Of a stretch of 64,000 nt of DNA, positions 20,788 through 63,590 are shown one piece after another (position 1 is the first letter of the stretch; each line of letters opens with the position of its first letter). The notes below the pieces were generated by a model. It made no database searches. It was not told where the DNA came from and saw only the letters and a list, made by a program, of their open reading frames with translations. Both the position numbers and the translations under genes were made by a program. This DNA is from Nemertoderma westbladi (Eukaryota > Animalia > Xenacoelomorpha), in NCBI GenBank assembly GCA_032718475.1, contig JAUCBJ010001113.1, positions 7,539-71,538 of the forward strand. Direction: 5' to 3'.

Positions 20788-20801
20788 ACGGATTTGTTTA
20801 A

Positions 20802-21512: not shown

Positions 21513-21516
21513 TTAA

Positions 21517-27360: not shown

Positions 27361-27438
27361 CTGTTTAGAGTATTTTTATATTTTAGAAACTGTGATTTTT
27401 TATATTTTATAGAATTAAATCCCATTTTCTGGGAGCAG

Positions 27439-30105: not shown

Positions 30106-30640
30106 CTAATTATATTTTACAGCTAAAAACCCACCAGCAAACAACAATAAATTATTAACCAGTTTGTTGAATATAGGATAATATATATGAAATTTAATTG
30201 GTGAACATATTAATGTACATTTACCGGTATAGAAACAGCAAACAACAACAATATTATTTATTCTGACTTTACAGTTATTGAACATTTCTGGCTCATATGA
30301 AATTTCTAGTTTGACATTATCAAATATAACATAAAACCCGATATTGTTTAAAAGTAACCTATAGATTACGGTGTCAATACTAAAAATATAAGTACACAAA
30401 TTAATAGATTTAAAAATCAAATTAATGTTTGTTTTTTCAAATATATGCTTTTTAACTTTATTAAAATTATATTTTCTACCAAGAATTGTTATTCGTCCAT
30501 TTGTAAACATTAATAAGGTTGGACCAAATACCTTATATATAAACTGATTAGGTTTGAGTACAATTTTACCTGACAATCATAGCCAATTACTATATAATTG
30601 AAAGTTGAATTACACAAATATTATAAATTATAAAATACAA
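30106..30640 (-). pseudogene. TATA-binding-protein (TBP)-like ORF in the Polinton; 5' end probably frameshifted
   Basis: Two-repeat pattern: TLLMFTNGRITILG (cf. TALIFSSGKMVCTG) and ISYEPEMF...VCCFYTGKCTL (cf. SYEPELF...LLIFVSGKVVL). Confidence 0.65.
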
Positions 30641-34800: not shown

Positions 34801-36926
34801 ATTCCTTGAATTACTTTGTGAGACTGTTTACTCCAAAGCACACAGGCAGAACGATAACGAGTAAATGTGTCTACCAAATGTAGAATAATATTGTTATTAA
34901 TAAACTTCAGATCTAATGCAATAGTGTCATTGAACTCATTACTTATTGGTAGACCAACAACAGGCCTAGGCGGTGGCTTGTTAAATCTGCGACATATGTC
35001 ACAACTTTTTTGAATTTCTTCTAACTGATTTGCTAGCCCTTCTGGAACACTTCCAGTCCCCTTAATTAAACGAACTAATTTATCTGCTGGTGCAAACTGG
35101 CGGTGCAACTTTATAGCTACTTTCTTCATTTCATCAGTTGACTTTATTTCACACGAAATGTGAACTTCCTTTACTAATGCAATAGATATGCAAAAATGCC
35201 CTGCAATATTATCAACAGTTGGAATCTTTTGTCCAAACATTATTACTTCATTCTTTCTAAAATCAAGAGCTGCATTTGCCTTAGCTAATGAATGTTTAGA
35301 GAGTAATAGAGGAATATTGCATGATACCACTGATGCTTGGACATGAACCCGCTTATTGCCAATTAGACAAGGAATCTTCACACATTTGTCAGATATCACG
35401 TTTTTCCCATCACCAAACCTAAATAAAGTGCAACTTGGAGTTTCAACAACCTCAGATTTTTCAATATCGCTGAGACTGTCTAGATATGCCATATACCACA
35501 ACTGCCCACACACTGATTTGGTACAGCCAGAGTCCAGAATTGCTAACCCAATAGTGTCTTCTAAATACACATTGGTCTGAGCTGTTAAAACATACACATC
35601 ATCACTCTCACCAAAATCATCCCCTTCATTAAACATACCTGAAATGTCTCTGTAACTTGTAAGAAGAACATCAACTTCCTCACTGACTGTCTCCCCTTGA
35701 CCATCACAGAAGTGGGCGGTTTCATTGTCGTCAACTCCAATCCTCCTCTGAAAGCAATTAGCTGCATAGTGATAAATACTCCCACACCTTAAACATTTAG
35801 TTATATTACCATATCGATCCAGGGGATTTCTTACTGCACCAGAACCCCGACTTTGTCCTCGGTCAAACTGATATGAAGAACCCCGACCTCTGCCAAGCTG
35901 ATCTGAAAACTGACCTCGACCAAACTGATCACTATGTCCACTATACTGACCACGGGAATACTGATTCGGCCTTCGATAATTAAACCCACCAACTCCTCCT
36001 CCACGCTGGTAACCTTTAAATCCTCTATCAGTAAAATATACCTCATCTTCACCTATTTCATCCGAACACACTAAAGCTTCCTGCTTTATATCCAACTCAC
36101 CTAATCCTGATGAAACCTCACTTCTCTTCCCTGAAATTTTCTTCAAGGTGTCTCGCATACCTTTGAAACTTAAAACAGGGACAGTTGTCCTTGCAAGTTG
36201 TTCTTCTGTGTGTGACAGTCCAGCGCTCTTTAAAAGTCTGAATGCAATCACCCCATCTGGCAGCTCCATACCATGTTTCCTTACTTTTGAATATAAATTA
36301 TCAAATTCCACCAGATATTCCTCCATGATTATCCCAACTGGACGTATATACTTCTCAAAATTCTCATAAGCACAAAATGCCAACAGTTCCTTGTCCTTTA
36401 AATATAAATCGTCTAGCTTAGTTATTACTTTCTCTAGTCCGTCTTCACCATTTAATTCAGCAATTGGTATATCCACTGTAGCTTCCCTCGCTTTTCCGCT
36501 CATTGATAACGCCAACACCGGACCTTGTTTCTTTTTATTTAAATCAGTTACTAAACGCCATATTTCTATTTCCTTTTTCCAGTCGTCATAGGAAAGATCT
36601 GCACGCATTTTGGGGGGTATTTTATAACTTGCTACACCTGCTGATTTGGCCATTTTGTTGAGGAACAACCACGCTCTGCTACCATGAAATAATGACTATT
36701 AATTTATCACTCCTGACTGTCCGACATATATTCAATCAGATATATTTTAGATAACACAATTACACCGGTAGGCATGATATACCGGTTACAGAGTACTACA
36801 GTACTGCAGTACCACGGTACAGCAGTAGACTTTTCTGCACTTACGGTCCGGACAGATTACCATTAGAAACCGTCATTACTTACTCTCTTACTTCAAGGCC
36901 TCTTAGGTCCAAGGGTGATCCTAACA
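31869..36926 (-). mobile_element. Full-length Ty1/Copia LTR retrotransposon, GalEa-like clade
   Basis: 242-bp LTRs at 36685-36926 (5') and 31869-32110 (3') with one mismatch seen; TSD GTGCC; PBS TGGTAGCAGAGC (tRNA-iMet); PPT AGAAAGGGGGAGA; PR-IN-RT-RH order. Confidence 0.95.
32268..36653 (-). CDS. gag-pol: Copia gag-pol polyprotein, single frame with one premature TGA at 34788-34790
   Basis: CLRCGSIYHYAANC knuckle; AILDSGC; HRQF...CDIC; VDNGGEF; SPWSNGLCER; KARLVARGFEE; IHVDD; YADAS; LADCLTK. Confidence 0.92.
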
Positions 36927-38882
36927 GTGCCTCTTTGTGCCAATAAGTTATTAAATTGTTCCCTCATATAAGGTGAAAGCATTGATTCATTTATACTTAA
37001 ATGCTCGGGGGCTAACGGTAATTGTAATGTTTGTTCGTGAATAGCTTTGGGGTATTTTAAATCACATATTAAAAAATATCCAGTAGATCCGTCATTGTCT
37101 AAATCTACCAAGTACTCGGTTAGTTTTTCTGGAATTGCATTCTCTAAATGTTTAATACTTACTTCTTTGAATTGTGAGGTGGGTAGTTTTTTACTTAAAT
37201 TCCCAGAATATAAAGAGTTGAAATCAATATTAAAAATATGGCATTCTTCCTTAGTAGAATCATATGTACTTGTTTTGGGTATATTTGATTCTATATAATG
37301 CTTACGACAAAATGAAACACCACCCCTAATTTATTTTTCAAAATCTCTATATGTCTGATAATCCTTTATTAATTCTATTTTACATTTATTATATTTTAGA
37401 GCAGCACAATCATAGGTACATGATGCGATACTACAGTAAAAAACCACTTCCAAATCGTAATTTTGTTTAAAAACATTCCTAAAATTCTCAAATATATCAG
37501 CAAACAAGCAAACATTGAGTTTTAAATAGGCTAAAAGATAATCTTTGAGATACACACAGTCGAATTCTACCCATGATAATCCAGCAAACCTATAATCTTC
37601 AATTGTACATGTTTTTTGACTTAAGTTACTAAAAAAATTATTCATAGATGGCAAACCTGTATCATTAAATTTATTTATATCTGTCAAGTACTCGTATGGA
37701 AATACTCCTTTCCGATTAATTGTTGAGTTATTCAAGTTTGGGTAAAAATATTTCGTTTCTTGTAGAGTAATAGGTAAAATTGAGCTATAATCATGACTCG
37801 CTACAACCTTTGTTGAACACTCAACTAAATTACTTAGGGAAAAGCTTAAAAATTGATATGTGTCTAGACACGTAACTCAATTTTTTTAGAAGAGTTTTTA
37901 ATTGGGATAAATGCACTCAGTGAAATATATCGTTCTGTATTTCTCGGTATAACCTTTATATCCCAATCCGTGTATTTCTTATCTCTAAATCCGGTTTGTA
38001 ATATACAATGTATATCGTAGTGATTGGCATTGTGCCCGCAAAGTACATACAGGTATCGTTTCATGGATAAACTCCGGTTACACCTATTACAGGCCGCCAC
38101 GATATATTTACCTGTAATATGTGAATGATGTCTGTTTTTCCCTACATTATTATTTAAAGTAACATTACAATAGAAACAAAATTTTGCCTATTCAAAATTT
38201 ACAAAATCAATATTAGTAAATAATATAGTTTTATGGGTGTATATTTCTGACCAACAACATAATTCAGTTAAATCAGTATATAATGAATCTAAGAAATCTT
38301 GAATACAATTATTATTATTATTTGACTTTACGAATGTTTTCAAATGACATTTTGGAGGATCAATTAATTTACTATTGGGAACAATTAAATAACTTACAGC
38401 ACCCGGTATATGCTCCTGTATAAATTGATTATTAACTGAGGGTTATAAGATACATTCTATATCAAAGTAGGTGACAAACAATGGGGATATGGGGATTTAA
38501 ATATATCGGTCTACTGTAGGTACAGTTGTAAGTCTATTTACTGCTGTATTTGGCTGATATATTTACTGTGTTTGGTGCAGTTTAACTGTTTGTTGTTTAA
38601 GTTTTTAAATTTCCCGCGTTTATGTTATTATTTAATACATGGCAGTATTTATGGTTAAAAAAAAATTGGGATAAGGTTCTATCTAAATTTGTAAAACTAA
38701 TATGTATTCTTTTTTTATTAGGTAGTTTCTCGCGTTGACTTTTTCCTTGATAACAGGCGAGACAGTGTCGTTGGAGAACTTCCTTTTGATAAAAATGCAC
38801 CAAACACCTTTCACAATATTGTCTATTGTGGATATGAAAAGGCACTTAATACTGGAGCACCAATTATAGAAATTAGTCTTAA

Positions 38883-40040: not shown

Positions 40041-42911
40041 AAAATAAGTGAGAATAATGATAATCCTAAAAGTCTATGGTCTACCCTAAAATCTTTAGGT
40101 TATAAAAACCTTAAATCTAAATCGAATATTGTTCTGCAAGATAACGGTGAGCTGATTCATGATCATACTCTAGTTAGTAATTTACCACAGGTAATCTCTT
40201 GTACAGTAGACTGCGATTTGCTAATGACTACAGTTTGACCTCTGTCTGACAGGTAGGATTTGAACCAGTCTATAGAACCTACACCCATCAGGCCTAACTT
40301 ACCAAGCAGAATTTCGTGATCTACAGTATCGAAAGCCTTTTGTAGGTCCAACATTACCATACCAGTATATAAACCGCAAGGTAGTATATTAGGTCCTCTG
40401 CTTTTTGTATGCTATGTAAATGATATGATAAGTAGTATAGATCCCGATTTTAAACTCATTTTATATGCCGACGACAGTGCTCTTATTTTCTCTCATAAAG
40501 ATCCTATCCATATTTCCCAAAAGTTAAGTGCAGTTCCAGAATCCTGTAATGAGTGGTTGGCTGATAATAAGCTATCCATTCACTACGGTAAGACTGAAAG
40601 TATTTTGTTTGGTTCCAAAAGAAAGTTAAAGAAGGTAACTAAGTTTGAAGTCACTAGTAATGGACATAAGATTGAAAATAAAAAGGAAGTTAAATATTTA
40701 GGCGCCACATTGGATAACTGCTTATCAGGAGAAAGTACAGTGAAAAATATTTTCTCGAAAGTTAACAGTAGGCTTAGGTTTCTATACAGAAATAAAAATA
40801 GTTTAAACACCGACTCCCGCAAGTTACTTTGCCCTTCTTTAATACAGTGTCACATGGACTATGCGTGCTCTTCTTGGTATGAAGGCTTAACCAAACAGCT
40901 TAAATGTAAATTACAAGTAGCTCAGAATAAAGTAGTACGATTTATTAAAGACTACAAACCTAGGCACCACCTAACTCCAGATGACTTTTCTGAATCTGGA
41001 CTACTTAACTTAGATAGTAGAGTTAAGCAGCTACGCCTTAACCATGTGCATAAAGTGTATAATGGTAAATGTCCCAATTACCTAAAACAACAATTCAACA
41101 GAGTACGCGATACACACTCTTACAGTAGCAGAGCTAGTGCTTCAAACTTCTACCTCCCGAATTATAAATCCTTTGAATCTGATACATTCTTTTTTAACGG
41201 TATTAAAAATTGGAACGCTCTGCCTAATGAAATTAAAAACCTAGATAATCAACATTCTTTTAAATCTGCAGTTAAATCTCACCTCCGTGTGCAATGTAAA
41301 AATAGGTACAATAGTCCTACAGTAAGTTATTAGTTTATTAAATATTTACTATTTATACTGTAATTACGTTTTTAATAAATTGTTCTGTACATTACATCTT
41401 TATCGTTGAGTTGGACATTGTTACGCTCTCGGTAAAGTTGTACATGTACATAGTGTAATTACGTTTTATATTGGTTTTAGGTTAGCGTAGTGTAATATTG
41501 TATTTGTAACCAAGTAACATGAAGGACCCCCTTGGAAATAAGCTGCAAAGCTTTAGGGGTAATCCTATATGTTATGTTGGACAATACCTTTATACCGGTA
41601 CATTGTTTGGTGTATTTGTTATTGTTTTTATATAATGTATAAATAAATCTATATGAAGAGCTTTCGTATTCAGCAATCGATTCAAGTTAGTTATGCTCAC
41701 ATAATGATTTTGTTTACGCACATTATTATTTTTTACTACAAGTAATATATTTAATAAATCTTTATCTGGTGTAATTTTACTAAACTGAGGTTGTCTTAAT
41801 ATAGATACGGGGGTCTGTTTGTTGTTGTTATTCCAGCATAATAAATTAATCATATATTTCGAATTTTGTTTTTCAAAAAGTTTAATCACTAGCTGCCACT
41901 CTGTTGGATAATCATTTTTCCTGTTTTCAAAAATGAAATGACTCATATAATTTTTGTGTGACAAAGTACGGTTTTGTTGTTGTTTTTCACTTTGCTACTA
42001 AATTTTGCGGTTATAATTTGAAACAATCATTATCAACCGTTTGTATATTTATTGTACTGCGTTTACTCGATAGAGCCTTAGGTAATTCCATATATCCATG
42101 TCCCTTATATAGTAACGACCTAGACTTAGAATCAGCTAATTTAATTTCAACTCTTAATAAAGATTTAATACGCCAGCCTGAACCACGTGTGTTAAACAAA
42201 CATGGCTATTTTTTCTAATATATTTTCAAGTATATACTCAAACCATAGATCAAAACTTTGTGATGAATCTACAGTATTAATAGCACCACCGGAAGAATTA
42301 AAATAAAAGGTTTCTAATTGCTCACCTTCTGAAAAATGTGTTCTGTACATTAATACATTTAGACCTAACCATAGTCTAAGAACATTCATTTCTTTCAATC
42401 TGTCCAATATTAACTGAAGAATATTACCTCGAATTTGCGCTAATGCTGTTTCTACATCGGGATTATCTCTAGAAGTTGGGAGGTCATGGACATAAATTTC
42501 AAGACGATTATCGTGAGCGTCTTGTTCCCGCGTAAAAATTGTTGCGCATGTACCATGAGCCACCCTTAATTTTTTTCTAGATATTATATTTTTATGTTGT
42601 GGAGATTTACGCTTTCTTGTGTAATAACATTTCAAGTGACAGTCGTGTCGTAAATAATTCTCATATATATACTCTTTATTACAGGTAGAACAAGTCAATT
42701 GATAAGTGTGAAACTCCATTTCTTTACAGCCCGTAGTTGATTCATGTCGTTTACAAATTTCACTGCATGAAGTCGTTACATGACACTTAAAACAAGAATA
42801 ACCTTCAAAATGCGACTTTAGATGACGTAAATAATTATGTCTAGTTACATTCATATGACAGAATGAACAACATATTACTATTTTATCCATGTTGAAGTTT
42901 GTTTAGATTAT

Positions 42912-46763: not shown

Positions 46764-47216
46764 TTACAACGCATGTTGGTTTATTTTATAATAATTAACA
46801 AGCCATTTATATAATATTATTTCATTTATTTCTACATTATTTGTAAACGTTCTCATTGGATAGTTTGTGTGAATTCGATTTACCAAGTAATAAAGACAGT
46901 ATAACCCGCATGTGGTCCTTCTAGGGTCTTGAAATTGCCTGCGAGTAGTACACCACCTTGCTGAATTTTTCTCAAGCCATTTCTCAATACATCTGTTTGG
47001 ATATTTTGGACCAAACGAATTAAATAATTCAGCTTCATTATCTCGTATATATATAGCCACCCAATGAACACCAGGTAGATGCGCTTTATCAGTATTTACT
47101 ATTAACCCATAGTCTCTTCGCTTATTATTATCTAATTTAGGTAATTTATTAGATGGAAATGCCCCCAAATAGTGACCACCCACTGGAAACATATCAAGGT
47201 CCTCTGTAGATAACAT
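46764..47216 (-). CDS. Polinton adenain-like cysteine protease
   Basis: YLGAFPSNKLP; LIVNTD....PGVHWVAI; ELFNSFG; FQDP...TCGLYCLYYL. Confidence 0.9.
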   Translation of the reverse strand: MLSTEDLDMFPVGGHYLGAFPSNKLPKLDNNKRRDYGLIVNTDKAHLPGVHWVAIYIRDNEAELFNSFGPKYPNRCIEKWLEKNSARWCTTRRQFQDPRRTTCGLYCLYYLVNRIHTNYPMRTFTNNVEINEIILYKWLVNYYKINQHAL

Positions 47217-48134
47217 ACTTAATCGATATGTATTTCTTTCCTGCTATTTAAGCTTAATGATTGATCATAAATATTAAAAACAATTACATTTATGGTCTCA
47301 ACCAGCTGATCGGCAAATCTTAATTTTAATTGTCCGTTAGTATATATCGATGGTTGCGGATCCCTAACATAGCCGTCGGCAGTTAGGTCCCAGGATATGA
47401 GAGGGCAATTACCTAAGTAGGTTTCAGTAAGCGCTCAGTAAGGTTCAAACAACATATTAATATGAAAATAAATTATCTGCAAAGAAAAGAACCCAATACT
47501 ATATAATTTGACCTTATTAAAAAAATGGAACTTTTGCACACTTATTTGTACAAATGCACTTTAGCAGATCGTAATGGTGGCTCTTATTTAACAAACTTAT
47601 GTTTATCCTCTACCGATCTACGATGGTGTATGATCAAGTGTCAGTCGCTAAAAGAGTCAAAAATCCAATTTAATAAATCTGGATTTGCGATTTTGGACCA
47701 TATTCATGGACAATTTTAAGTCACTTTATATTCATAAAAAGTTAAACAAATGTTACGATTATAGTTAGAAATCATTCCAAACTACATTTTAATCCAAAAA
47801 ATAACATTCTACGATGAATAGAACTGGAAATAACAGTGTTTGAAATATCGAAAAAATGTTCACTATTTAAGTGCATTTTGCACTAAGTGCACATTTTTTT
47901 TTCCCAAGTTTTATCCTATTTCACATACTACAATCTATCCTCTATCCAATGAAAAAAGTTTCAGATCAAACGGGCCAGTAGAACCGAAGTTATTGCTGTT
48001 TAAAAATAGTCACTCGAAAATTTCAAATTCTCTTGGTCACATAGTCTAGTGGGGAAGAGGAACAACCTCAGGTAATAGTATTAGGATCCCCTACCGCTAC
48101 TGTAAGGAAGGATTGTACAGCAACCCAACCAGAG

Positions 48135-51100
48135 GTGAGTGATAGGGAGGGTAGTGTAGCAGAAGCGAGAGCCCGGAGCCCAGTTTCCAGACCTGTGGGT
48201 ATGGTAAGTGCCGTGGTCCCAGCGGCTGTTAGGAGTACCCGTAGTTCCCGAAATAATCCTTCAAGTCCACCAAGTGTGAGTCAGGTAAGCGAAAGAGAAC
48301 TTGACATCGCGATAAAGAAGAAACTTCTCGCGCATGCCGGACATATAACCCGGACGGCGGACAAGGTAAGGAAGATGTTAGCAGACTCAGCGAACATCGG
48401 AAGGGAAGGGTTAGTAGAGATTAGAAGAGGATACAACTCAGCGTTATTCAAACAGACGGAGGAGCTTGCAGTCCTAGCAAAGAAGGCAGTAGAGTCTCAG
48501 TCGAGCGACGTGGCGACGAGGATTTACGACAGGGTTTTAGCAGCCTTGTTGGAGCACCGCACGTTATCGGAGCGATTCCGACGAGTTAGGACGGATAACT
48601 GGCTGCTATGGGCATCACAAGTGCAGGCGACTCAGGTGAGTGACGCAGAGTCGAGAGACTTAGTGGAGCAGGAAGAAACGCAAGATAAGGAGGAGCGCCA
48701 TTATCAGAGGGAAGTTACCAGCTGGCTGATGCAGAGTGGAGTGGTGGTACCGGGTCAGGTGCTACCGACGATGGAGAATATCCAACAGAGAACGTTAACT
48801 CCACCCGACGACGCATCTAGAGACAGTGGCGATTCCCAGGTTAGTCAGGGAAAGTTATATGTGCTAGATCCCTTGTTTCTCACAACTCGGCGGAGGAGAG
48901 AAGACGCCGACTGGACGAACAACAGGCGGAAGTTTTGCGTGCATCGGAAGCACGGAAGGAAGCTGAGCGGGAACGGGAGCGCACACGTAAGTTAGACGCA
49001 AAGTTGCGAGAGTTGGAAGACAAAGGTAAGCGTGAGCAAGCGGAACGCGAACAGGAAGAACGAGAACTCCAACTCGAACGCGAACGCGAAGAACGCGAAC
49101 TCCAACTCGAACGCGAACACGAAGAATGAGAACTCCAACTCGAACGCGAACGTGAAGAACGCGAACTCCAACTCGAATGCGAACGGGAAGCTAAGGAACG
49201 CGAGCAAAGAAGACGCGAACTCCAACTCAAACGCAAGCGCAAGGAGCGCGAACTTGAGAGCGAGAGGGAGCGACGGGCGTTGTATGAAGAGAAGGCGCGT
49301 GTGGAAGAAGAGGGCGCAGCGAGACGAGTGAGGGAAGAAGAAGAACGTAAACTGGCGCAGTTGGAAAGTGCGAGATTAAACCTAGAGAGCGAGGAACGGA
49401 CTAGAAAGGCAAATGAAATCGCCGAGAAGGGGATGCGAATGATCGAAGAATGTGGGGCGAGTGTAGGGACCGAGTTGCGAGAACTGTTCGCACTGCAGAA
49501 GGCCGAACAGGAAGCGAGAACTCCAACTATACGCGAGTCGACGACGACCAGAATTCCTAAACCCAGTCCAGCTATTACGAGTACTCGGATCGCTAAACCG
49601 TTCTCTACATATCGCACACCAGTTGGTATTAGTGCTTCACCTATCGCGCAGAATCCAGCGTATCATCGCACCGCACCACTATACATGGAACGTGAGAACG
49701 AAAAGTTTAGAGGAGAAACTCCGACGGGCCGAGTATTGGGCGAACCGAACCCGTGGGTTTGGAATACGCGGACGGAGCGCCGACCCAGTTCGACGGAGAA
49801 CTTCCGGGTTAAACCGGAAGAGGGATCATATGAGAGACAGCGGATTACTCAGATAGAGCCGACTACACAACAGAACCATAGCCAGGAATTTATTACGAGG
49901 GATGAGTTAAGTGCTAGTTTAGCGTAAGCTATATCGCCGCACATCCAACCTATAACGGACATGCTTAGCAACCTACAGTTAAAGGAAGCAGCCCAGGTAA
50001 GTCTAATTCTAATCGTAGCAGGCCTGAGTCAGATAAAGTCCAACCTAGTCAACGAGTACGTATATCGGAGGCAACTATACCACATAGACCTCAGGTAAGG
50101 ACGCCTGTCCCAACTATCCATAATCCCGATTTAGAAAATTCGGCGGAGAAATTTATACAAGATGCCTGGGTCAGGGCCTCGGCGCGCAAACCATCGCGAG
50201 CGCTAAGGACTGACACAGAATCGAGTGATAAAGAGGAAGACATGAGACGTCAGAAGTCCCGAAACTATAAGGAAAGAAGGACGGATGCGGAGCAGGTAAG
50301 TTTGAACCACCAGGAAAGGACCAGACTTAACAACCCTGCGGAACTAAACCATTTGTTAACCCGGAACGACGCAACCCTTAGGGACATAGGTAAGTTTGCT
50401 GCTAGGCAAGGACTGCCGACGCAACAACCCCAGAAGTTTATGGGTAACCACAAGCACTGGAGTACGTTCAAAACCTATGTCGACGAGCAGCTAACCAACA
50501 GCACCTTTACTCCCAACGAGAAGTTCAACTATTTGCTTCAGATGCTCCATCGAGAACCTAGAGCCATTGCTGACAACTTCGTCGGCAATGAAAGAGCATT
50601 TGAGTTGGCAATGAAGATGCTTAGCGACATCTACGGGAATAAAACCAAGATGGCACAGTCGATAGTAGAAGACTTGGGTAAGGGCAGAAAGATTACAACT
50701 CCGTTAGAGCTGTTGAACTTAGCGAACGCTATTTCGAATGCATTGGACATCTTGAAGACGGTGAATCTACCTCATCATGGTGATCACGCCGAAGTTTTGA
50801 AGAGTGTAATAAGATGTTTAAACATGCGTTACCGACAGAAATGGCGCAAATTAGAGAATAAGTTGGAGGGTCAAGGTAAAGTATTGACACTTCAGCATAT
50901 TCATGACATGATAGCCACAGACGCAGTAGCAGAGATGAAATCAAACTTCTCCGAGGAGAATATGAGAGAGTCTAAACCTGTTACCAGTAAGTCTATGGTA
51001 AGTTTTGACGATGACAGGACCACTGTGACTTATAACTCAGTAGACAGATATAATTCGAGTACCCCAGCCTTTAGATCAGACTCGCGAGTATGGTCAGGTG

Positions 51101-54100
51101 AGCGGTTAGATAGACCTAGGTTAAAGCAACAGGAGTTGCCGGATGGATTTATAGGTTGCCAATACTGTTTACTAAAGGAGGTAAGATCTGACGACCATAA
51201 GTTAGATAGTTGCAGATGGTTTAAAGAATTAAATTCGGAACAGAGAAGAGTTCAAGTGCGGACGTTGGACACCTGTTGGGCATGTCTTGCGCCAGGTCAT
51301 GTATGGCGGCAGTGCCCGAACAGCAAGGACGGATGCATGGAATGCGGCAGACTACATCACAAGTTGCTACATGCGGATTTCCATACCCCAACGGACCGTT
51401 ACTTACAGCGAAATCCTCACAGGAAGGGGAGCAAAGAACCCGTATCGATAAGGAGGAATACGTATACCGGCATCCAGGACAATGGTTATCAACCAGGTTC
51501 GTCGGACGAGGATGGCGAGTCGAGCGCAAGAGAGGTGACCTGCCAAGGTTTCACCGCGGATAGTTCATCGACCAGCGCGCGGACGTATTTATCATCGGCC
51601 ATGTCAGAAACAGTTAGCGTGATTCCGGTGAAACTTACTGGAGATAAGGGATCTAAGCGAATATATATGATGTTGGACACTGCGTCCACATTATCGTATA
51701 TCGACGAGGAAGTGGCGAGAGCCGTTTCTAGCTACCAGGATGCTGAGGAAATCCAAATAGAGTTGAAGTCTATGCATGGGGTAGGAGACCTCAAGGGACA
51801 CAGAATTTCGGTAGAACTAGACTCCCTACTTCTGAGAGACCAACACACTCGACAAGAACGAAGAGCTTTGCCATTGGACGGATTTAAGTGTCTAGCTAAG
51901 AAGGGATTCGGCAGGCAGTTAGGTAAGGTGCCGCCGATGAGTCCCATACCACAGGAGTATTTTGACAAACTCAGAATACCGAGACACCAGGTAGGTTATA
52001 GGAATGTTTCTATGTTGATTGGTGCAGAACAGCTGATCGCACACCAAATATGGGAAACGAGACCAGCTGAGCCGCATGTCAATGGACCACATTCCCATAG
52101 GACCATACTAGGTTGGTATACAAGAGTACCCATGTCTTATGAGTTTACAGGTGGCGACAAGCCAATAGACAGATACGACGAATTACAGCCTATAACTCAA
52201 CCACCGTTAGTAGAACCACCAGACATAGACGAGTTTAGGAGAACCTGTATTGACCACTATAGTGACTTTAGCGAGTCGGACGAGGAGTTGATTCCCGATA
52301 ATGTTAGGTTGTCGGAACCACTTCATAACGACCGGACAGATAGTGAACCCGAGGACTACTGTTATCAGACCCGTGGGTCTGGTTCAGCGGCCCACGCTAC
52401 CTATTTGAGTAACGTTTTGACTTATACCGACATAGTGGAGGGTCAAGTGGCTAAATATCGAGACCTAGACATTTTCCAATACAGTGAGGAGGAATTACAG
52501 AAGGAATTGATACGCCAGGACCTCGAGACAGGAGCTAGAACCATTGAATGGCTGGATAGGGACGCAATGGAACCCGGTGGATATGACCTAGCCATGTCCA
52601 CTGATGAGAAACGGTCACTGGAGATGATGGAAGATACCATACGTCTGCTACCGACTGGACATTTTGAAGTTGGAATGTTGTGGCGTTGACAACCTCCTAA
52701 GTTGGAGAACAACTACAACTTAGCCTTGAAAAGATTGAACGGAGTAAGGGCCCGGTTGTTGAAGAATCCGGACATTAGGGAGAAGTATTGCGCCCAGATC
52801 AACAACTATTTTGCCAAGGGATTTGCTGGGAAGGTAGAGGACCCTGACTTAGTGACAGACCAGACTTATTACCTCCCACACCACTATGTGACTCACCCTG
52901 ACAAGCCAGACAAAGTCCGAGTAGTCAACGACTGCGCAGCAGTCTACAGAGGTATGTCCCTGAATTCAGAGTTGATGGATGGTCCCAACCTGAAGAACTA
53001 TTTGATAGGAATACTGTTGCGTTTTAGACAGCGTCGATTCGCATTTACTTGTGACATCGAGGCGATGTTCCACCAGGTAAGAGCCTGTAAGGCAGACCAG
53101 GATAGCCTTCGATTTCTCTGGTACGAGAATGAAGACTTATCCGGCCCAGTGGTTACATACCAAATGTACGTTAGGATATTTGGCGCCCGCGATAGTCCGA
53201 ATGGCACACTGTTTGTTCTAAAGAAAACGGCAACAGCCCAGATTGGTAAGTATCCAGTAGAAGTCATCGAGTCCATCATGAGAAACTTCTATATGGACGA
53301 CGGATTGGTGTCCAAGGACATGGCGGAACAAGCCACAGAAGTGGCTCACGGCCTGCAAGAGTGCTTGGCTACAGGGGGTTTTCCTCTAACCAAGTTCACT
53401 ACGAACTCGGAGGCCCTATTAGAGTCGTTCCCGGTAAAGGATCGCGGGAGCGGAGACATTGAATTGGGGGTAGAACCCATCCCCATGGCGCGAGTACTGG
53501 GACTCGCTTGGAATCCGAACACAGATAAATTCCAGGTGAGAGTTAGGTTTGAACCCAGTAGCCCAGACAAGGTTTTGACTAAGAGAATTTGCTTATCGAC
53601 TGTAAATAGACTATTTGACCCGATGAACTTTATCAGTCCGGTAATATTACAGGCACGAGCGTGTATGAGGAAAATTTGGTTGTCCGACTTAGAGTGGGAC
53701 GAACCAATATCTCCTATACATGCGAAGCAGTGGAGAGAGTGGGAGGCCGAGTTGCATCTATTGAAAAATATAGATGTACCCCGTTCCTACTTTCCGAATC
53801 AGCTGGTATTCCCAGCTGATCTCGAACTCCACTTGTTCAGTGACGCAAGTGACACTGGATTTGGTATGGTAGCCTACCTTCGCCGAGAGGTGAGTCAGGA
53901 TAAATTTGAGACGGCCTTTGTGACTTCTAGATCAAAGACAATGCCGGTCAAATATATGACTGTCCCTCGTGCAGAGTTACAGGCGGCTGTAGTTTCAGTC
54001 GAGGTAAGTAAGCAGATAACAGAGGAATTAGACACGACATTGACCTTATTCTATTGGACGGATGCATCCTTAGTGTTAGTATACATTGCGGCCAACAATA

Positions 54101-54518
54101 TTGCACTAAAGACATTTGTGGCCAACAGACGCGCTCAGATCGTCGACTTTTCGACGAAGGAACAATGTAGACATTGTCCGGGAGTGTTGAACCCGGCCGA
54201 CATAACTTCGAGAGGTGCAATGCCGGCGGAATTCTGTCAGGAAGAGTCGCAGGAGTTTTGGTTGCATGGACCTGATTTTCTAACGAGGACACAGGAACAT
54301 TGGCCAGAGCGACTAAAGATAGTGAACAATCCGATGCCTGAAGATGCAGAAGTCAAGGTGGAGAAAGTCTCTAAGTCGAAGTCTAAAGCCAAACTTAAGT
54401 CATTGGAGCGGCCTGAAGAGTCATTGGAGCGGCCTGAAGAGTCATTGGAGCGGCCTGGAGACCTGTCAGAACAACAGACTTATGTGACTACTAGGTCCGG
54501 AAGGGTAAGTTATGACAT
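48135..54518 (+). pseudogene. gag-pol: Family C gag-PR-RT-RNase H (stops and frameshifts)
   Basis: ERELQLERERE coiled-coil repeats; FMGNHKHWSTF...KFNYLLQML; CWACLAPGH...CMECGRLHHKLLH; MLDTAST; CDIEAMFHQV; FYMDD; FSDASD; PRAELQAA; NPADITSRG. Confidence 0.9.
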
Positions 54519-55562
54519 AAAACGAAGTTAAAGAAGGTAACTAAGTTTGAAGTCACTAGTAATGGACATAAGATTGAAAATAAAAAGGAAGTTAAATATT
54601 TAGGCGCCACATTGGATAACTGCTTATCAGGAGAAAGTACAGTGAAAAATATTTTCTTGAAAGTTAACAGTAGGCTTAGGTTTCTATACAGAAATAAAAA
54701 TAGTTTAAATACCGACTCCCGCAAGTTACTTTGCTCTTCTTTAATACAGTGTCACATGGACTATGCGTGCTCTTCTTGGTATGAAGGCTTAACCAAACAG
54801 CTTAAATGTAAATTACAAGTAGCTCAGAATAAAGTAGTACGATTTATTAAAGACTACAAACCTAGGCACCACCTAACTCCAGATGACTTTTCTGAATCTG
54901 GACTACTTAACTTAGATAGTAGAGTTAAGCAGCTACGCCTTAACCATGTGCATAAAGTGTATAATGGTAAATGTCCCAATTACCTAAAACAAAAATTCAA
55001 CAGAGTACGCGATACACACTCTTACAGTACCAGAGCTAGTGCTTCAAACTTCTACCTCCCGAATTGTAAATCCTTTGAATCTGATACTTTCTTTTTTAAC
55101 GGCATAAAAAATTGGAACGCTCTGCCTAATGAAATTAAAAACCTAAATAATCAACATTCTTTTAAATCTGCAGTTAAATCTCATCTCCGTGTGCAATGTA
55201 AAAATAGGTACAATAGTCCTACAGTAAGTTATTAGTTTATTAATTATTTACTATTTATACTGTAATTACGTTTCATAATAAATTGTTCTGTACATTACAT
55301 CTTTATCGTTGAGTCGGACATTGTCACGCTCTCGGTAAAGTTGTACATGTACATAGTGTAATTACGTTTTATATTGGTTTTAGGTTAGCGTAGTGTAATA
55401 TTGTATTTGTAACCAAGTAACATAAAGGACCCCCTTGGAAATAAGCTGCAAAGCTTTAGGGGTAATCCTATATGTTATGTTGGACAATACCTTTATACCG
55501 GTACATTGTTTGGTGTATTTGTTATTGTTTTTACATAATGTATAAATAAATCTATCTATCTA
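54519..55562 (+). mobile_element. 3' fragment of the same CR1/L2 family as 38839-41650, replacing the integrase core of family C
   Basis: Near-identical to 40617-41650; (TCTA)n tail. Confidence 0.92.
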
Positions 55563-55873
55563 CCATATCTACCAGAACAAAGTGGTACAAAACGGTTCGG
55601 AGTCTCTAAAGAGGAGATTACGTATTGATAACCGAACTGATTGTCAAGAGAAAGTATTGGGAGACGGGAGTGATCTTGCATATACACCCAGACATGCAAA
55701 ACATAGTGTGCACAGTCACTGTGAAAATTAGGGGCAAGTGTCCGCACCCAAAGAAGTGTAAAACTAATGGTTTACACACCTTGGACCGACCGGTCCAAGA
55801 TATCGTGTTATTAGAGGAGACACGCATCGAGACTGGAGATTATAATTTGTCTCCTGCCTCAAAACAGAATTAG
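55563..55873 (+). pseudogene. Integrase C-terminal remnant of family C
   Basis: RTKW...KYWETGVI..IHPD...V.TVTVK...RPVQDIVLLE matches the pol C-terminus of family A. Confidence 0.75.
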
Positions 55874-56645
55874 TGTTGGACGCAACTCACTTCGTATGCA
55901 TTCCTCGTATGCAAATACTGGGAAATGCATAGGAGCGGGTTTGTGGTGATTTGCGTTGAGTTTGTCTGGTGGGTATCAAAACAAAAAATTTATTTTCAAA
56001 ATTTTGGAAAATTAAGAAAATTTTAAAAAATTAGAAGTGAACCCAAGACAATTCCAGACGCTGTGTATAGACGCGTTTTAGAATTCGTCTATAGATAAAC
56101 AGTGCAGTAATTTGAAAAGTCGTGAAGCCTGGAAAATAGCATTGAGAAACCATGGTGATGGCTATATTACGTAGGAGTGTAAATTGAGTTTAGCAACTTC
56201 CACAGATTGGTGCCAACAGTACAACTAAGGTGCTAAAGGTTAGTAGCACCAGGGCGTACGCGGACCCCACTCAGTAGTTTGCAGTGAAGTGTGATGTTCG
56301 ATTATCAAACCTGTGGGTTTGGTATAGTCGAGTATTGAGATTATGGTCCTTTCTAACTACTGTAGTTTAGTACAAGTAATGGGAGTAGTTTGGGCATCAA
56401 AAAGTGAGTTGGTCACAGCCAGTTTACCTCCAAAGTTTTTGCGCTATGCATGGGAATAGGTTAGAGGATAGTTAGGAATGAGACGGGATCTAGAGAGTCG
56501 AACCCGAACTGCTGTAAGGCGGGGGGGGGGGGGGGGGGGGGGGGCTCAAGAGGTCTGTCCTTCGGCGACATCTAACTGATTTACCCACAGTGTAATTAGT
56601 TACGTAACGGAACCTTATTGGGATATATATGTATATACGCGCATA

Positions 56646-59600
56646 ATGGAGAAGGAAATTAGAGCGCAACCGCGGAGAGAATTTACTGCCAGAGAGGAGG
56701 CAGAGCTGCCATTTGCCCGACCGGGATGTAAAGATTCGAATGTTTACTACCACGGGAGGTCGGTGATGGAGCTAAATGGGAAATATAAACCAGCTTATGA
56801 TAAAGAGTTAAGGAGGGAAAGAATGAGAGCGTTGGGGGACCGTATGGAAGTTTTGCGCTCGGTATCCCTATGATTTCGCGTTAGACGTGTGCGACATTAG
56901 CGAAGACCCGGACGAGGAGATTGCGCGGCTGTACCACATGAATATGTATTTACGACACGAAGAGCCGCTACCTGCAGTCCGAGATCAGTTCGACGGAATG
57001 CATCTGTATCGGAGGACTCGAGGCAAGGATCAAGAGACGTCGAAGGTCTTCAGTCCGGATTTGTTCCACAGGCCGTATCTCAACCCCGACCGGTGTATTA
57101 TTCCGACGGCAACGAACCTGCGATATTGGTAGATCACCCGGAGTCGCGAGAAGCGATTAGATTCTTGTCGATGGTGAGGATGTCGGATCATTGGAACGTC
57201 GACAGTCTACGGGAAGTTTTATGCGCGAAGTTCTTGCATGATGTCCCGATGCAGATCACAGACTACGACACATTGGATAAGATTGGAGCTCCGGGAAAAG
57301 AGAGTAAGTTATTTGGATGGTTAGACAAGTACATCAAGGTATGGGTCGCGGTGGCTACATTCCCAGATGACGAGGAGGTAGACCAGGCGTGGCTGAGGAG
57401 AAAGGGATCTTACACCCGATATGACGACCACAAGGCTATCGAGCGCATGTGGACCCCATCCGACGAGATTCAGCGTCAGTGGAGGAAAACGGAGGAATCA
57501 CTGCAGGATTGGAGAGTGATGTTTTACGACAATGAAGGAGGGTCTCATCAGGAATGCTTGACTAGTAAGTGTATTCAAATTCGCGCGGCCGATGGTGTAA
57601 CTCATGTGTTTATGCGCGTAAGGGCGGATAGAGAGAGACCGGAGCCCATAATCACAACGCAATATCGGAAGGGGAAGGATCCTAGGGAACAGATTTTGGA
57701 GGTATGCAGGCGAGGAGGTATGCACGGAGCGGAGCGTATCGACGCCAGGATGCTACCCAAGAAGGTTAGAGAGGCGATTCTTAGCCAAGATTATGTCAAG
57801 GTGGGATCGGGAGTCCAGAGTGATTTGGAGAGTGACTTCAACGCCATGACTGATTTAGAAGATAGATTGCCGAGACCGTTTGTCGACACCAAGCTATTGT
57901 TGCTATGGGCACAAGACATGGGAATTTATAGGGAGTATCCCAACTCTGCCAAGACTGGTATGGGCTTCATAGCACATTTATTGTATAATTGGGACTTCAA
58001 GTTGAAGACGCAGAAGAAATACGAGGAGGCGTATGGTGAATATAACACGCCACCGGGAGCGGAGTTCAAATCCCACTTCAAGCGGCAAGCGTTAGTGTAT
58101 TGGAACATATGCGCGCCACCCCGTGCGTCACTACAATATTATTTGGTGCTTGAGTCGAACACGGTAACTTGTTTATTAGCGGATATCGTTGCGCGAGTTT
58201 TGAAGCGTCATCCATTGGTGTTCGGAGGAGATCAATACGTTCGCTCGAAAGGGGGAATCCAATCCGACGTGATGAAGCGTTTCTTAACCCCGTTCTTCAA
58301 CCAATCGCTAGAGAATACGTCGATGGTTAGGAGAGGATTAGCAATATTCGAAGGGATATATCGACAGAATATCGGAGATTTGGGAGACCGACCGTCGATG
58401 GAGTATCCGACGCCAGAAGCTTTGGAGAAGTGGTTCGGGAATCAAACCCGCGGGTTTGGTACTCCCTTCCACTCGGAGGCTGATAGACCTGTTAGAGAGG
58501 GTTGGCCGGAGACGTTAGTAGAGGTGTTTGGAGTAGATCTTCCGGTGGAGAAGACATATCCGAAACGAACGCGGGAGGAAATATTGGAGATAGAGGACAA
58601 GGGCGAGGATGTTTACTTCGTTCCGGATCGACAACCGCTGACCGGAGAGGACGACATCGTATTAGACATTGGGAAAGAAGGAAGTGCGAAACCGATTGGA
58701 GACCTCATATATGAGAGGGCCTGGTTTCCACAAGCGCGTAGGTGCAAGTTGTGCGGCAGCACAAGGCACAATCAAAAATCGTGCGACGCGGTAGTGGAGG
58801 CGGCGCATAAGGTCTGCCGTTGGTGCAATGAGACCGACCATTCGTTTCATACGTGCACCGTTTTCATTTCTCAATGTGGATATTGTGGAGTAAAGGGACA
58901 TCGTAGCGCGAGATGCCAACTGCGAGACGATTCCTTCCAGAACCATAGCGCTAACCTACTTCGGGAGATGCTAGATAAGTGGGAGAGTGTGGCTGACTAC
59001 CACATTCAAGCGCAGATGCGTTGGTTACCATTTAAGGCGGGATATGGATTTTGGGCGGTAGACCCGTCACATGTTGCGTACGAACCATATCTACAGTCGC
59101 TACCACAATATCAGGAGCTCATCCTAACTGCTCAAGACCTTCCACAGAACACTGGAGTCATAGTCGTTCGGGAATACTTCAGACAACTAAATATGGACAA
59201 CAAGTACACTTGGAACTTTGTTGCTATTTGCGACCGTATTACAAAGGGTTTGTTTTCGGAAACTAGGAAAGTGGTGCGCGCGCGAGGAGATTGGAGGATG
59301 GCGGCTATTCAATACCGCAACGAATTCCTGTTGACTCACGTACCAGTGGGGTCGTTGACCGCTCAAAGGATCGAGGAACAGCGAACCGCAGCGCCCACAA
59401 CGACGACCGTTGGAGCTCAAGGCTCACGGAAGGAACCAGGAGGAGAGGTCCAAGACAAGCGTCAAGTCAAGGACGACCACTATCACTCGATTATAGAGGC
59501 TCAGCGATTGCAACGCAAGGCGCAGGGTGCGTCGGAGAAGGCGCGGGTGCAATTGCAGAAGGAAGAGTTGGCGGAAGCGACCACAGGAGCACGACAATCG

Positions 59601-59783
59601 GGACGAGGCCGAGGGAGAAGCACGAGCCGGGAATCTGTCGGAGCTCGGGGAACATCGTCGCCGGTTCCGGGGAGTGACGCCTCACGGACCACGTCAACGG
59701 AGTCAACTGGAGGACGATTGGTGTATCTGGGTAGGGGGCGAAAGAGAGGAGCGAGCCCGAAGAACCCAGGAGCGGGTCAGTAA
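56646..59783 (+). CDS. Family C ORF3: DEDDy-like (WRN/RNase D family) 3'-5' exonuclease + 3 CCHC zinc knuckles + basic disordered tail; 5' part frameshifted, 57093-59783 open
   Basis: ExoI MFYDNEG; CIQIRA; LPKKVREAILSQDYVKVGSGVQSD (ExoII); FVDT; GMGFIAHLL; YW...QYYLVLE (ExoIII-like); CKLCGSTRHNQKSC, CRWCNETDHSFHTC, CGYCGVKGHRSARC. Confidence 0.75.
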
Positions 59784-60288
59784 TGCATCGTATCACGGGG
59801 CGACAGACTCTAGATATATACATCATCGTCGCTCTGATGTATATTGTAGCATTTGTAAATATCCGACTTGACTCATATACACTAGTCGCACTGATTTGGA
59901 TTTATATTATGAGAGAGGCGAAGGAGGTGATTGGGGAGACAAACCTGCGGGTTTGGCTTACTCCTTTCACCTGCCCTAGCAAAATTTTTTATAATTTGAA
60001 AGTATTTTTGTAAATTTAATTTGTATGTAGTAATCATTATGTAGAACGAATGAGAAACAGTATTTTGTAAATTTAATTTGTATGTAATAATCGTTAACAT
60101 TGAGAGAGATAATATTTTGTAAAATTAATTTGTATGCAATTCATTATGCAATATCTATGGCAATATTTGTAAATAGTATAGTATCAAGATATTTAGATTA
60201 TTTGAAGGAGATTTATTTTATTTTGTATACATCGCCTTACACTCTTCTACAATTGGAGGGAAACATTGCATGATTTCCCTTGGAGCGG

Positions 60289-61597
60289 TGTTACGGTATA
60301 TGGCGCTGTACCTACATTATGTAATACATTAGTCCGTTATACAGTATAATATGTTAGTCCATTATACAGTATAATATATTAGTCCATTATATAGTATCAT
60401 ATATTAGTCCGTGATGCAGTATAATTATTTAGATAAGACATAATGCGCAATGATATTTAGATAAGGAAGTTGAAACGCCCATATATTTTGAACTCATCCA
60501 TTTTGTATAGTATGTAGCCCTACCTATGTAGTTTTGTAATAGGATATAAGTAGATAGTTCCAGGGTAGCAAGTCCTTGTTGGACCCTGGATCTGGGCTTG
60601 CCGTTATTAGCCTTGATGAGGCTAGCTATTGGTTTTAATTTCTCTATAATTGCGCTAAATTTATATTTGTGCATGATATTATTAGTACCGCCAAATTAAG
60701 CATCGGGAAAATTACCTTTTATGGTGGCAATTTACGATTTCAGGGAGCTATAGGCCCACAATCCGGCTCTCTTATTGGCCTAACTGCTTCCAGGTTGGTC
60801 TAATGTTAGCTCGGATTGGGGAGCCAATGAGAGATCGATTGCATCACCCTTCTCAAATCACCTATAAATTGGCCTACTTCCATTGTTACCTACATTCTGC
60901 TTATCACACATCCTTAGTCATCCATTCCACACCCACACAGCTCACCTTCAACTATTATTCGATGCTTAGTTTTTCTGTGTAAATTACTGCCCCTTTTTGA
61001 TTTCTTGCAATGATTCGTTAATTTGCAATTTCTGTTTGATTCTTGTTTGTGTTTCTCAATCAATCTCAATGATCGCTGTTAATTACAAGTTGGAACTATG
61101 ATTTCTACCCCTTAGTAAATGGTTCTATGTGATTCCTTTCGACAATAATCCTACGGGATTTCTCAGACTGTCAGACTTTTGTGATTTGCATGTGCCGCTA
61201 CGGTAGCTACTCATTCTGATGGAGGGCTAGGGTACCGGTAAGCGCGGCGGGCGCATCGGGGGGTTAGCGACGACGGGAGTGCGGAGGATTCAAAGACAAG
61301 CAACATTGGGGGGATTACTATTGCGCGCGCAAGTTTGCAGCGTAGAGTGGGTCAGGTACGCCGGTTCGGCAATTAGGGGCTGATGATCCAGGTTTTGTCT
61401 CTATTTTGTAGTATTAGGGGGACAGGAATTGGGTTAGTTAGGAAGCCTAGACGTAGCCGGGAGAGATCTGCATCCTTTACATTGCGAGTTGCGAGTTGTG
61501 AATTGCTAGCTAAACTGTAGATTGCGATTGTTGTTATGCTGATTGGTGTGTTACTAAAGTGTGCCTAATGAATCACGAATGCTTGGATAGGCGCTCT
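60289..61597 (+). repeat. Probable 3' LTR of family C (right end not defined)
   Basis: TGTTAC start after the purine tract; ~25-bp tandem repeats at 60325-60425; CCAAT (~60824) and TATAAA (60863) boxes. Confidence 0.55.
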
Positions 61598-63590
61598 TGG
61601 AACTTCCCCGGACCCGGACTCCCGTTTGACTTATGGGAAGCTGCCTGGGAAGACATACACAGGATGGGAGTGACAAAAGACATCAGTGATCCAGCTGTAT
61701 GGAAGAGGTCGGCAGCAGGATACATACAGGGATTCTTCAGCTCTTTGGAGCGATTAGAGGAACAACTGTTTCGACAACCCCAAGGACCTCAAGAGCAGGG
61801 AGAGCTGCTTTATCAAGTTAGAGAAAGAATTCTAAGAATCAGACTAATCCTATCGGCCTTTGAGGAAGCTTCGAAAAGAAGACAAGACACGTCGTTGCAA
61901 GTTGCTGTAAAGACTTGGTTCCAGCGGGTGAGTCTCAAGGTTCAAGGAACGGCCCAGTGGAAATCTCAGCTGGCTGAGCGCTCAACCCATGGAGAATCAA
62001 CAGACGCTACCTTTTCTCAAGTGGAAAGCGAAGCAACAGCAGAGAAACCGCATAAGAGGGATGCTATTGACATCTATCTGTAGGACTATCAACGCTTTCT
62101 AGGTGATGAAGAGTTGAGGAGAAGGCTGGATGGACTTCGCCCTAATAGTGAAGGAGCCAAGCTTGTGTTGGACGCAATAGATGTGGAAATGTTAGCTGCG
62201 AACCACGCTAAATTTGATAAAAGCATCCGCATCGCTAAGGTTCAAGAAGAACAAGTAAAGAAAAAACGTATAGAAGACAGAAAGACAGTAGCAGCGGCAG
62301 CGGCAGAGGCAGAAGCGGAAAGAAAGGCAGCAGAAGTGGAAAAGAAAGCGGCAATGGCAGCGGCAGAAGCGGAAAGAAAAACGGCCGAAGTGGAAAGAAA
62401 AGCGGCAGTGGCAGCGGCAGAAGCGGAAAGAAAAACGGCCGAAGTGGAAAGAAAAGCGGCAGTGGCAGCGGCAGAAGCGGAAAGAAAAGCGGCAGAAGCA
62501 GAAAGAAAAGCGGCAGTGGCAGAAGCAGAACGGAGGGCATCTGAAGAGACAACCCAACTAGAGTTGGAAAATCTTCAAGAGAGGCAAGACAACTTCAATA
62601 AACAGTTGACAGCTAGTCAAATGATGAGTCGATCTACTCCCAAACGACAGGGATTTACATCCTCTGATGAAGGCGATACCACCGATCCTGAAGGCGGAGG
62701 AAATAGATATTGTCTAAGTAGGCGTAGAAGAATGTCCCACCGTCAGAAATTGCCGGATTTGCCCCCAGCTGTTAGAAGGCAACTAGCTAGCACAGACTTA
62801 GGTAGTACAGAACCCACAGACCAAATAATTAAAATAGAAAGACTCCCTACTATAGTAGATGAGCCTGAAATAATTAGGCCTGTTCTTGAAACCACCCCTT
62901 CGGTGATAGAGACACCTGTGCTCCCAGAACCTACCTCTAAATTCCCTTTGCACAGCACTAAACTACCTGTGCCCCACAAAACAACCCCTGAGACAGTTCC
63001 TGTCCTGGACTCCGAGCGAAATATCAATGATTTGTTGCCCGTTGTCCCTCGTCTACCCGCTACTATGTTGGCGGCTCCCGCTTCGGCGGTCGAGTGGGTG
63101 GATGAGGGGCGGCGGGGGATGAATCTCCTGCTCGGGCAGATGCAGGAGACTGTTCATCAGTTTAAAAGAACAGTAAGGGAAAGTAGGTTAGAGTTGCAAG
63201 AAGTGCAGCAGAGTATCGCGTTAGAACGCGATAAATTAGTAAATACACAAATGGGTATACCACCACCCCCTGTAACAATGTGTCAACCTGTTAGGTCTGA
63301 AGTATTTCATGCGCAAGGTGTGGAGCCTACACGCATCTATACTGCTAGTGAAGTGGAAACTCCTATAGTAAACCCTATTAAGGGTAATTATAAACCTGTT
63401 GACAATGATATTCCATATAGACTTGATAATAATCTGAGAAATTTATATACCGATAACTCGATATTAAATAACACGATGGCCCAAGAAAGTTTTACGCGTC
63501 AAATGGCTAGAACCGAAGCCCGTCAAGCGGTAAAGTTGGGGAGAGATCGTCAAGTTCAATGGAGATGAGATGAAATGGTTACCTTTTAAT
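61598..63590 (+). mobile_element. gag: Second gag fragment of BEL/Pao family A (no LTR, truncated at both ends)
   Basis: Near-identical to 15803-17821, but with a different AEAERK repeat array. Confidence 0.92.

Follow-up and report, generated by a model that had tools for sequence, protein, structure and literature searches.

DEDDy-type exonuclease domains are a known accessory of mobile elements, according to a review (PMC6338049). Third open reading frames (ORF3s) that encode such domains have been described in the bdelloid rotifer elements Juno1/2, Vesta2/5 and Athena/Terminon (PMC5408684; PMC6431247), and Dada DNA transposons carry them as well (PMC3706591). Among cellular enzymes, the knuckles of Trypanosoma brucei RNase D (TbRND) bind single-stranded RNA and strongly raise cleavage, with U-rich 3' ends preferred, and the pairing of a DEDD exonuclease with CCHC knuckles has been called very unusual (PMC7797062). 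Here we analyse a 64,000-nt stretch of the Nemertoderma westbladi genome (assembly GCA_032718475.1, contig JAUCBJ010001113.1, positions 7,539 to 71,538 of the forward strand; hereafter the window), in which the remains of a BEL/Pao long terminal repeat (LTR) retrotransposon are followed by an ORF3 at window positions 56646-59783. We lean towards the reading that this ORF3 is a dead copy of a multi-copy gene maintained by selection, likely the third gene of a BEL/Pao family, and that the gene encodes a predicted EXD2/WRN-type 3'-5' exonuclease trimming RNA held by its zinc knuckles. The parts of ORF3 are as follows.

56646-56857, + strand: ORF3 piece A, beginning at the likely start codon and ending at the first deletion (indels lie only upstream of 56646; 5 of 6 differences from other copies are synonymous).
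56858-57054, + strand: ORF3 piece B, between the deletions, an open frame in another phase (that of 56827).
57055-59783, + strand: ORF3 piece C, 908 codons open to the stop (23 of 28 differences in 57055-58250 are synonymous).
57450-58286, + strand: predicted DnaQ-like (DEDDy-type) 3'-5' exonuclease domain (model residues 25-303, family alignment).
58743-58916, + strand: three CX2CX4HX4C zinc knuckles (motif; conserved in relatives).
58980-59054, + strand: core of an unnamed conserved block behind the knuckles, F/W-E-x2-A-x-x-G...R...G-F (present in ORF3 and six of seven relatives).
59450-59780, + strand: basic R/G/S-rich tail, absent from relatives (alignment).

The motifs that had led the initial annotation to a DEDDy-like fold of the WRN/EXD2/Mut-7 kind were all found where it had placed them, i.e. 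D-x-E at 57528-57536, KVGSGVQSD at 57798-57824 and YLVLE at 58140-58154, with D 57528, E 57534, D 57822 and E 58152 as the putative catalytic acids, and the fold call is now backed by a family profile, fold searches and ESM features. In a comparison of the domain profile with 177,635 Protein Data Bank (PDB) sequences, EXD2 was the best match (E 0.011), to which the pattern LP..v..lL.d..i.KVG.g...D..k......DL aligns with its KVG..D region, and Egalitarian was matched at E 0.18; the profile of the whole family found T. brucei RNase D best (7c45, E 2.7e-5). Using an AlphaFold model computed from seven sequences, a DnaQ-like fold was recovered both by Foldseek, where all 38 rows were DEDD nucleases with EXD2 at the top (E 2.1e-3, probability 0.97), and by a wide structural search, where all 50 rows over the domain were DnaQ-like nucleases or polymerases as judged by their titles, seven of them at Z >= 8. 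The top structural row was EXD1 (Z 9.1, root-mean-square deviation 3.9, 163 aligned, model residues 25-303); further Z scores were 8.7 for Pol A exonuclease, 8.6-8.3 for diDNase/NrnC, 8.2 for both Klenow and Nibbler, 7.9 for RNase D, 7.8 for TbRND and 7.5 for WRN. Among the ESM feature matches, 24 of 30 share their set with PF01612. The domain is hence predicted to adopt the DnaQ-like/DEDD fold, the three lines of evidence (profile, structure prediction and ESM features) being each modest but concordant. Judged from its residues, the Exo II motif would favour the EXD2/WRN/Mut-7 type, the structural Z scores being tied within about 1.

Several observations weigh against this assignment. Pfam gives no exonuclease-domain match for ORF3 (none above the gathering threshold of PF01612), the model has a mean predicted local distance difference test (pLDDT) score of only 46 (core 55-80, remainder <60), no Foldseek row lies at E <= 0.001, and the EXD1 score is modest. 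The match to 7c45 draws 25 bits from the knuckles and 1.3 bits from the nuclease part. Finally, the sole match of a single-sequence PDB search was rotavirus VP8* (E 0.007; 0.007-0.03 overall). This match and one to Roquin (E ~1) were rejected as chance, because they are short and contrary to the fold results. An AlphaFold model from the single sequence (pLDDT 33) was discarded. No HRDC domain was matched by Pfam behind the nuclease at 58221-58700 (E <= 0.1), where the model confidence is <50.

Relatives of ORF3 are few. An exhaustive search of 1.84 billion proteins yielded seven at E <= 0.001 (best 3e-12), all unnamed, six being singletons and one a pair, with 25-32% identity and lengths of 514-715 aa; three word-index protein searches gave zero matches, which is uninformative since the exhaustive search found these seven. 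None of the seven passes a Pfam cut-off (P0003 against PF01612: E 0.2, 11.9 bits, cut-off 23.6), and the best ESM match of P0003, a lead only, is a Euglenozoa cluster combining PF01612 and zf-CCHC (0.86). The relatives have a common domain order, with a nuclease first, then a variable linker, and behind it three CCHC-like knuckles and a conserved C-terminal block, and a profile of six of them, with the query excluded, finds ORF3 in the six frames of the window at E 4.5e-40. By these comparisons, ORF3 appears to define a nuclease-knuckle family unnamed in the searched libraries.

Exo I (D-x-E) is found in ORF3 and six of the seven relatives (P0003, P0004, P0006, P0007 and P0008, and P0005 on an upstream exon of its locus L001), as are Exo II (VGS-x4-D) and an Exo III acid. 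The latter occurs as Y-x3-E in ORF3, P0003 and P0007, as Y-x3-D in P0004, P0005 and P0008, and as C-x3-D in P0006. The initial annotation had already pointed to the final Glu; its recurrence in two of six relatives marks it as a family variant and not as decay. Exo I of P0002 reads D-x-K and Exo II and III are missing, so that most catalytic motifs are lost. In this degenerate nuclease the knuckle and C-terminal module is duplicated, which suggests that the module works by itself. The locus of P0005 (L001, 494-594) holds an apparent intron with a TACTAAC box, and the exon that carries Exo I is missing from the protein as deposited.

These motif variants bear on whether the enzyme cuts. EXD1 and Egalitarian are inactive RNA binders (PMC5408684), and ORF3 may likewise have kept the fold as a non-cutting protein that binds element RNA and carries, shields or localises it. 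The Glu that replaces the last Asp in three of the seven sequences with an Exo III, the loss of motifs in P0002 alongside its duplicated knuckle module, and the presence of EXD1 as top structural row and of Egalitarian among the matches speak for such a binder; together with the Cys-for-Tyr change of P0006 they also weigh against an active nuclease. Set against this, the first three acids are kept in ORF3 and six of seven relatives at 20-30% identity, the fourth position varies only between Asp and Glu, and the structural rows tied within 1 Z include active enzymes. We thus consider a pure binder distinctly unlikely, and retain the predicted exonuclease.

Behind the nuclease domain, the three knuckles called by the initial annotation are strict CX2CX4HX4C motifs (58743-58784, 58815-58856 and 58875-58916); even a single one arises in only 1 of 20,000 shuffles. 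The conserved block that follows them has no Pfam match, and the R/G/S-rich tail is present as described. Likewise in agreement with that description, no hydrophobic transmembrane segment of the env type is seen in the three ORF3 pieces, to which this statement applies, where the highest 19-residue Kyte-Doolittle mean is 1.34. The N-terminal extension (56646-57450) comprises at least 270 residues here and more in other copies; it has no match, is missing from most relatives and may hold a further domain.

The claim that ORF3 is an intact frame of 896 aa did not survive: 56646-59783 corresponds to 1,045 codons, the frame from ATG 56646 runs into a TGA at 56871-56873, and the long stop-to-stop frame, 56901-59783, has 960 aa with its first Met at 57171. 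The interruption is explained by comparison with other copies, whose contigs end loose at 56857/56858 and at 57053-57055, indicating that the window copy carries two private deletions, near 56857 and 57054. The ORF3 of the window copy is as dead as its gag-pol. Piece B, with three of four differences synonymous in the frame of 56827 against one of four in that of 56901, is best read in the former, the numbers being too few for significance. The loose ends have 80-89 letters at the first break, and one contig of run X4 has 465 unaligned letters at the second; these lengths suggest that the full gene of the family is well over 1,045 codons long. All nine small-indel rows fall in 56580-56641, upstream of ATG 56646, and none in 56646-58250, which supports the start codon of the initial annotation.

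The copies were found in three DNA runs (X1, X2 and X3), which represent one organism and two samples, X1 possibly being the source sample of the window; a fourth run (X4) has a different organism label, is RNA only by guess and is uninformative on expression. In the three DNA runs, 1,878, 1,264 and 960 contigs aligned to 56560-58250 and covered 30 of 30 bins each, while X4 covered 19 of 30 at depth 2-4. Coverage is unbroken from gag through the spacer and ORF3 to the 3' region, with zero empty bins. ORF3 is a multi-copy gene in the DNA of two samples.

Relative to the other copies, 31 of 38 classified differences are synonymous and 31 lie at third positions, where 11.1 synonymous ones would be expected if changes of these types were scattered at random; a count of 31 was reached in none of 20,000 simulations. 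For the exonuclease domain the count is 16 of 18. This synonymous excess indicates that purifying selection has kept ORF3, the point to be held against it being that the 38 differences represent the best 40 of 145 rows minus two adjoining the first break. Of these best 40 of 145 rows, none hits the four acidic codons. The window copy is thus a member of a subfamily whose divergence was shaped by purifying selection, and has added a few non-synonymous changes of its own. Of the two results by which the initial annotation would have fallen, a missing DnaQ-like fold and an ORF3 lacking from other copies, neither was obtained, DnaQ-like matches having been recovered and the gene being repeated and selected. 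Rows from gag-pol (12, of which 2 are synonymous) were dismissed as a control, as they reflect near-100% private changes and the comparison would be unfair. Summed contig depth was likewise rejected as a measure of copy number, since two runs of one sample differ twofold in their ORF3/pol ratio.

The element in front of ORF3, and the sequence behind it, comprise the following features.

48053-54518, + strand: BEL/Pao gag-protease-reverse transcriptase (RT)-RNase H, 5' truncated, with several stops and frame shifts (ORFs, Pfam).
54519-55555, + strand: long interspersed nuclear element (LINE)-like fragment at the expected place of the integrase core (98% identity to 40617-41652).
55556-55873, + strand: pol 3' end, DUF5641-like, stop at 55871-55873 (PF18701 sub-threshold; tblastn to residues 696-791 of the pol of a neighbouring BEL element).
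55874-56645, + strand: non-coding spacer, including an uninterrupted run of 24 G (56521-56544) (sequence; high depth, many polymorphic indels).
59911-59927, + strand: candidate 1 for the polypurine tract (PPT), a purine tract ahead of TG (depth about twofold higher in bin 59746-60216 in three runs, which short internal repeats may inflate).
60280-60288, + strand: PPT candidate 2, resembling the junction ahead of the verified 3' LTR of the neighbouring BEL element.
60289-61481, + strand: candidate 3' LTR, TGTTA...TTACA, 1,193 nt, inferred (length like that of the neighbour's LTRs, 1,183-1,188 nt).

The BEL/Pao identity given in the initial annotation holds: the element from 48053 onward is BEL/Pao, as seen from DUF1759 (E 2.6e-10), Peptidase_A17 (E 7e-40) and a sub-threshold DUF5641 at 55610-55870 (PF18701, E 1.3e-4, 22.5 bits, slightly below the cut-off of 23.1). 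Another repeat takes the place of its 5' end and continues differently behind 48052 in four of four runs. Also as annotated, gag-pol is broken. The gag-pol of the window copy is dead, with stops at 48995, 49129, 49927 and 52689 and the LINE piece 54519-55555 at the site of the absent integrase core; by tblastn, residues 186-695 of the neighbour's pol have no match in the element. The placement of ORF3 between pol and PPT stands in its first part, ORF3 lying behind pol, while the PPT itself is not fixed between the two candidates.

ORF3 is likely the third gene of this BEL/Pao family, and probably physically linked to it. It lies on the same strand as pol, is intronless, starts 770 nt downstream of the stop codon of pol, and has the two PPT candidates and the candidate LTR behind it. 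The competing explanation, to which we assign a low but real likelihood, is that ORF3 is foreign to the element and came to lie behind this pol copy either within a different repeat or as a host gene that has been amplified. The linkage is indeed weakened by a number of findings: no contig among those listed bridges the end of pol and ORF3 over the G run, and summed depth of ORF3 relative to pol, a noisy measure, is about 1/3-1/2 in X1 and X3, with a step at the G run, and about equal in X2. The candidate 3' LTR has no 5' counterpart within the window, which is a nest of insertions, i.e. of animal-type transposons. Moreover, the 2,486-nt contig of P0005 is free of retroelement genes, and its nuclease domain is apparently split by a 91-nt GT-AG intron, implying that not every family member need be retro-borne. 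P0005 is the only relative for which genomic context was found, searches for P0001 (metagenomes), P0002 and P0007 (viral) and P0003 and P0007 (genomes) giving none. A foreign gene, however, does not readily account for a same-strand, intronless frame directly between the pol stop and PPT/LTR-like sequence, nor for the spacer and both G-run flanks being multi-copy, with a G run before the start in other copies too, and neither a terminal repeat nor a target duplication was detected around ORF3. We note that the G run, shared with other copies, could act in ORF3 expression.

The neighbouring element is a second, full-length BEL/Pao element of 16.4 kb at 12246-28631, whose LTRs (12251-13433 and 27439-28626) share 97.7% identity and are flanked by a 5-bp target duplication. 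With much space left behind pol and its LTRs verified on both sides, it demonstrates that such a layout exists in this stretch of the genome. The candidate 3' LTR shows no sequence likeness to the LTRs of this neighbour (score 23; shuffles reach 35).

For the activity of ORF3 as a third gene of BEL/Pao, we propose the following mechanism. By analogy with trypanosome RNase D, the array of three zinc knuckles would bind single-stranded RNA and present it to the two-metal exonuclease site, which would trim the 3' end. The element may benefit at the RNA stage, either through shortening of host silencing RNAs or through removal of decay-marking 3' tails from element RNA. That ORF3 acts at the RNA stage, and not in making or proofreading cDNA, is the weakest step of the proposal. 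We infer it from two points: LTR-element ORF3s are typically separate spliced units (PMC5408684), so that packaging of the protein would not be required, and the domain is missing from the neighbour despite its 16.4 kb, an argument against proofreading being necessary.

Alternatively, the protein may be a DNA 3'-5' exonuclease that serves reverse transcription, proofreading for the RT or trimming cDNA ends prior to integration and so keeping a 16-kb element intact. Exo II is most similar to EXD2, and exonucleases of WRN and Pol A are among the fold matches. CCHC knuckles bind single-stranded DNA also, in favour of this role; that integrase performs its own 3' processing counts against it. For Dada transposons, the DEDDy domains have been proposed to trim DNA ends (PMC3706591). 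Against a DNA substrate, large BEL elements evidently manage without the domain, as the 16.4-kb neighbour has no trace of it, and the position of ORF3 as a separate frame behind a 770-nt spacer means that packaging with the RT is not given. A role on DNA is accordingly very unlikely in our estimate, and RNA remains the favoured substrate. A broader scenario would have an old, unnamed nuclease family of mobile elements, with a TbRND-like build and a new C-terminal domain, riding on animal BEL/Pao elements and erasing guide RNAs or 3' U-tails in opposition to silencing by piRNA/siRNA or uridylation; as a whole we regard this as improbable.

The remainder of the window holds further elements. The 16.4-kb neighbour has a 1.9-kb leader, is without a TGG-type primer site directly after its 5' LTR, and contains a decayed post-pol ORF at about 25700-27360 that is unrelated to ORF3 and without Pfam or exonuclease match, i.e. 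another ORF3 of unassigned kind; as a homologue of the ORF3 studied here it was rejected. At 61598-63590, directly behind the candidate LTR, lies a sister copy (92%) of this 12-28 kb element's gag, truncated at its 5' end. A Copia-like gag-pol, named from reading its translation and nearly intact (one stop between two long ORFs), lies at 32268-36695 on the - strand, between identical 242-bp direct repeats (31869-32110 and 36685-36926). Scattered Polinton/Maverick-like pieces at 2308-5222, 29023-31787, 36893-37876 and 46764-47243 (-) include integrase, DNA polymerase B-like and adenovirus-type protease sequences, of which only PF00770 (46767-47243) was identified by Pfam and the others were read by eye.

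Compared to known systems, ORF3 resembles the third ORF of env-bearing BEL/Pao elements (Semotivirus; hookworm Atlas virus, PMC9094657) in its position between pol and PPT, and differs from the env of Semotivirus in having no signal or transmembrane segment and no glycoprotein likeness, with a predicted enzyme fold instead. With the EXD2/WRN-exo/Mut-7-Nibbler group (PF01612) it shares the Exo II pattern and fold matches to EXD2, Nibbler and WRN, and is set apart by remaining below the Pfam threshold, the Exo III Glu, the knuckle fusion and being repeat-borne. The closest architecture is that of TbRND (PDB 7c42/7c45), in which a DEDD exonuclease is likewise followed by C-terminal CCHC knuckles; TbRND, however, is a cellular mitochondrial enzyme with four knuckles after a 28-residue linker, as opposed to three after ~150-200 residues in ORF3 (PMC7797062). 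As the Exo II of ORF3 is EXD2-like, unlike that of TbRND, and only 1.3 bits of the 7c45 match come from the nuclease part, common ancestry of the two fusions is not established. Nevertheless, the mechanism of a nuclease with a knuckle array has been solved for this cellular enzyme, providing a direct assay to copy. An activity of ORF3 on small RNAs or on the tails of RNAs, if present, would make its element one of the few animal retrotransposons to bring an enzyme of their own against host silencing.

The precedent in rotifers that the initial annotation had invoked is real (PMC5408684). Literature searches, largely without subscription papers and with Repbase not covered, returned neither a BEL/Pao exonuclease ORF3 nor a triple-knuckle form, nor, in the same largely open literature, an active D-E-D-E enzyme. 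Like ORF3 here, the rotifer ORF3s are non-env third ORFs behind pol with a DEDDy-like exonuclease of predicted activity, no transmembrane segment and one Asp-to-Glu change (PMC5408684). They occur in non-BEL, Ty3/Gypsy-like lineages and have the motif DEED, in contrast to the BEL/Pao setting and the D-E-D-E of ORF3, with an Exo II Asp in ORF3 and six of seven relatives (PMC5408684). A triple CCHC array is unmentioned for them in the main text, from which figure legends or supplement might differ (PMC5408684). In a comparison by description, ORF3 stands apart from the rotifer ORF3s by its long extension at the N terminus, its three knuckles and the conserved C-terminal block, and it would widen the range of exonuclease-bearing elements from those of rotifers to the BEL/Pao superfamily.

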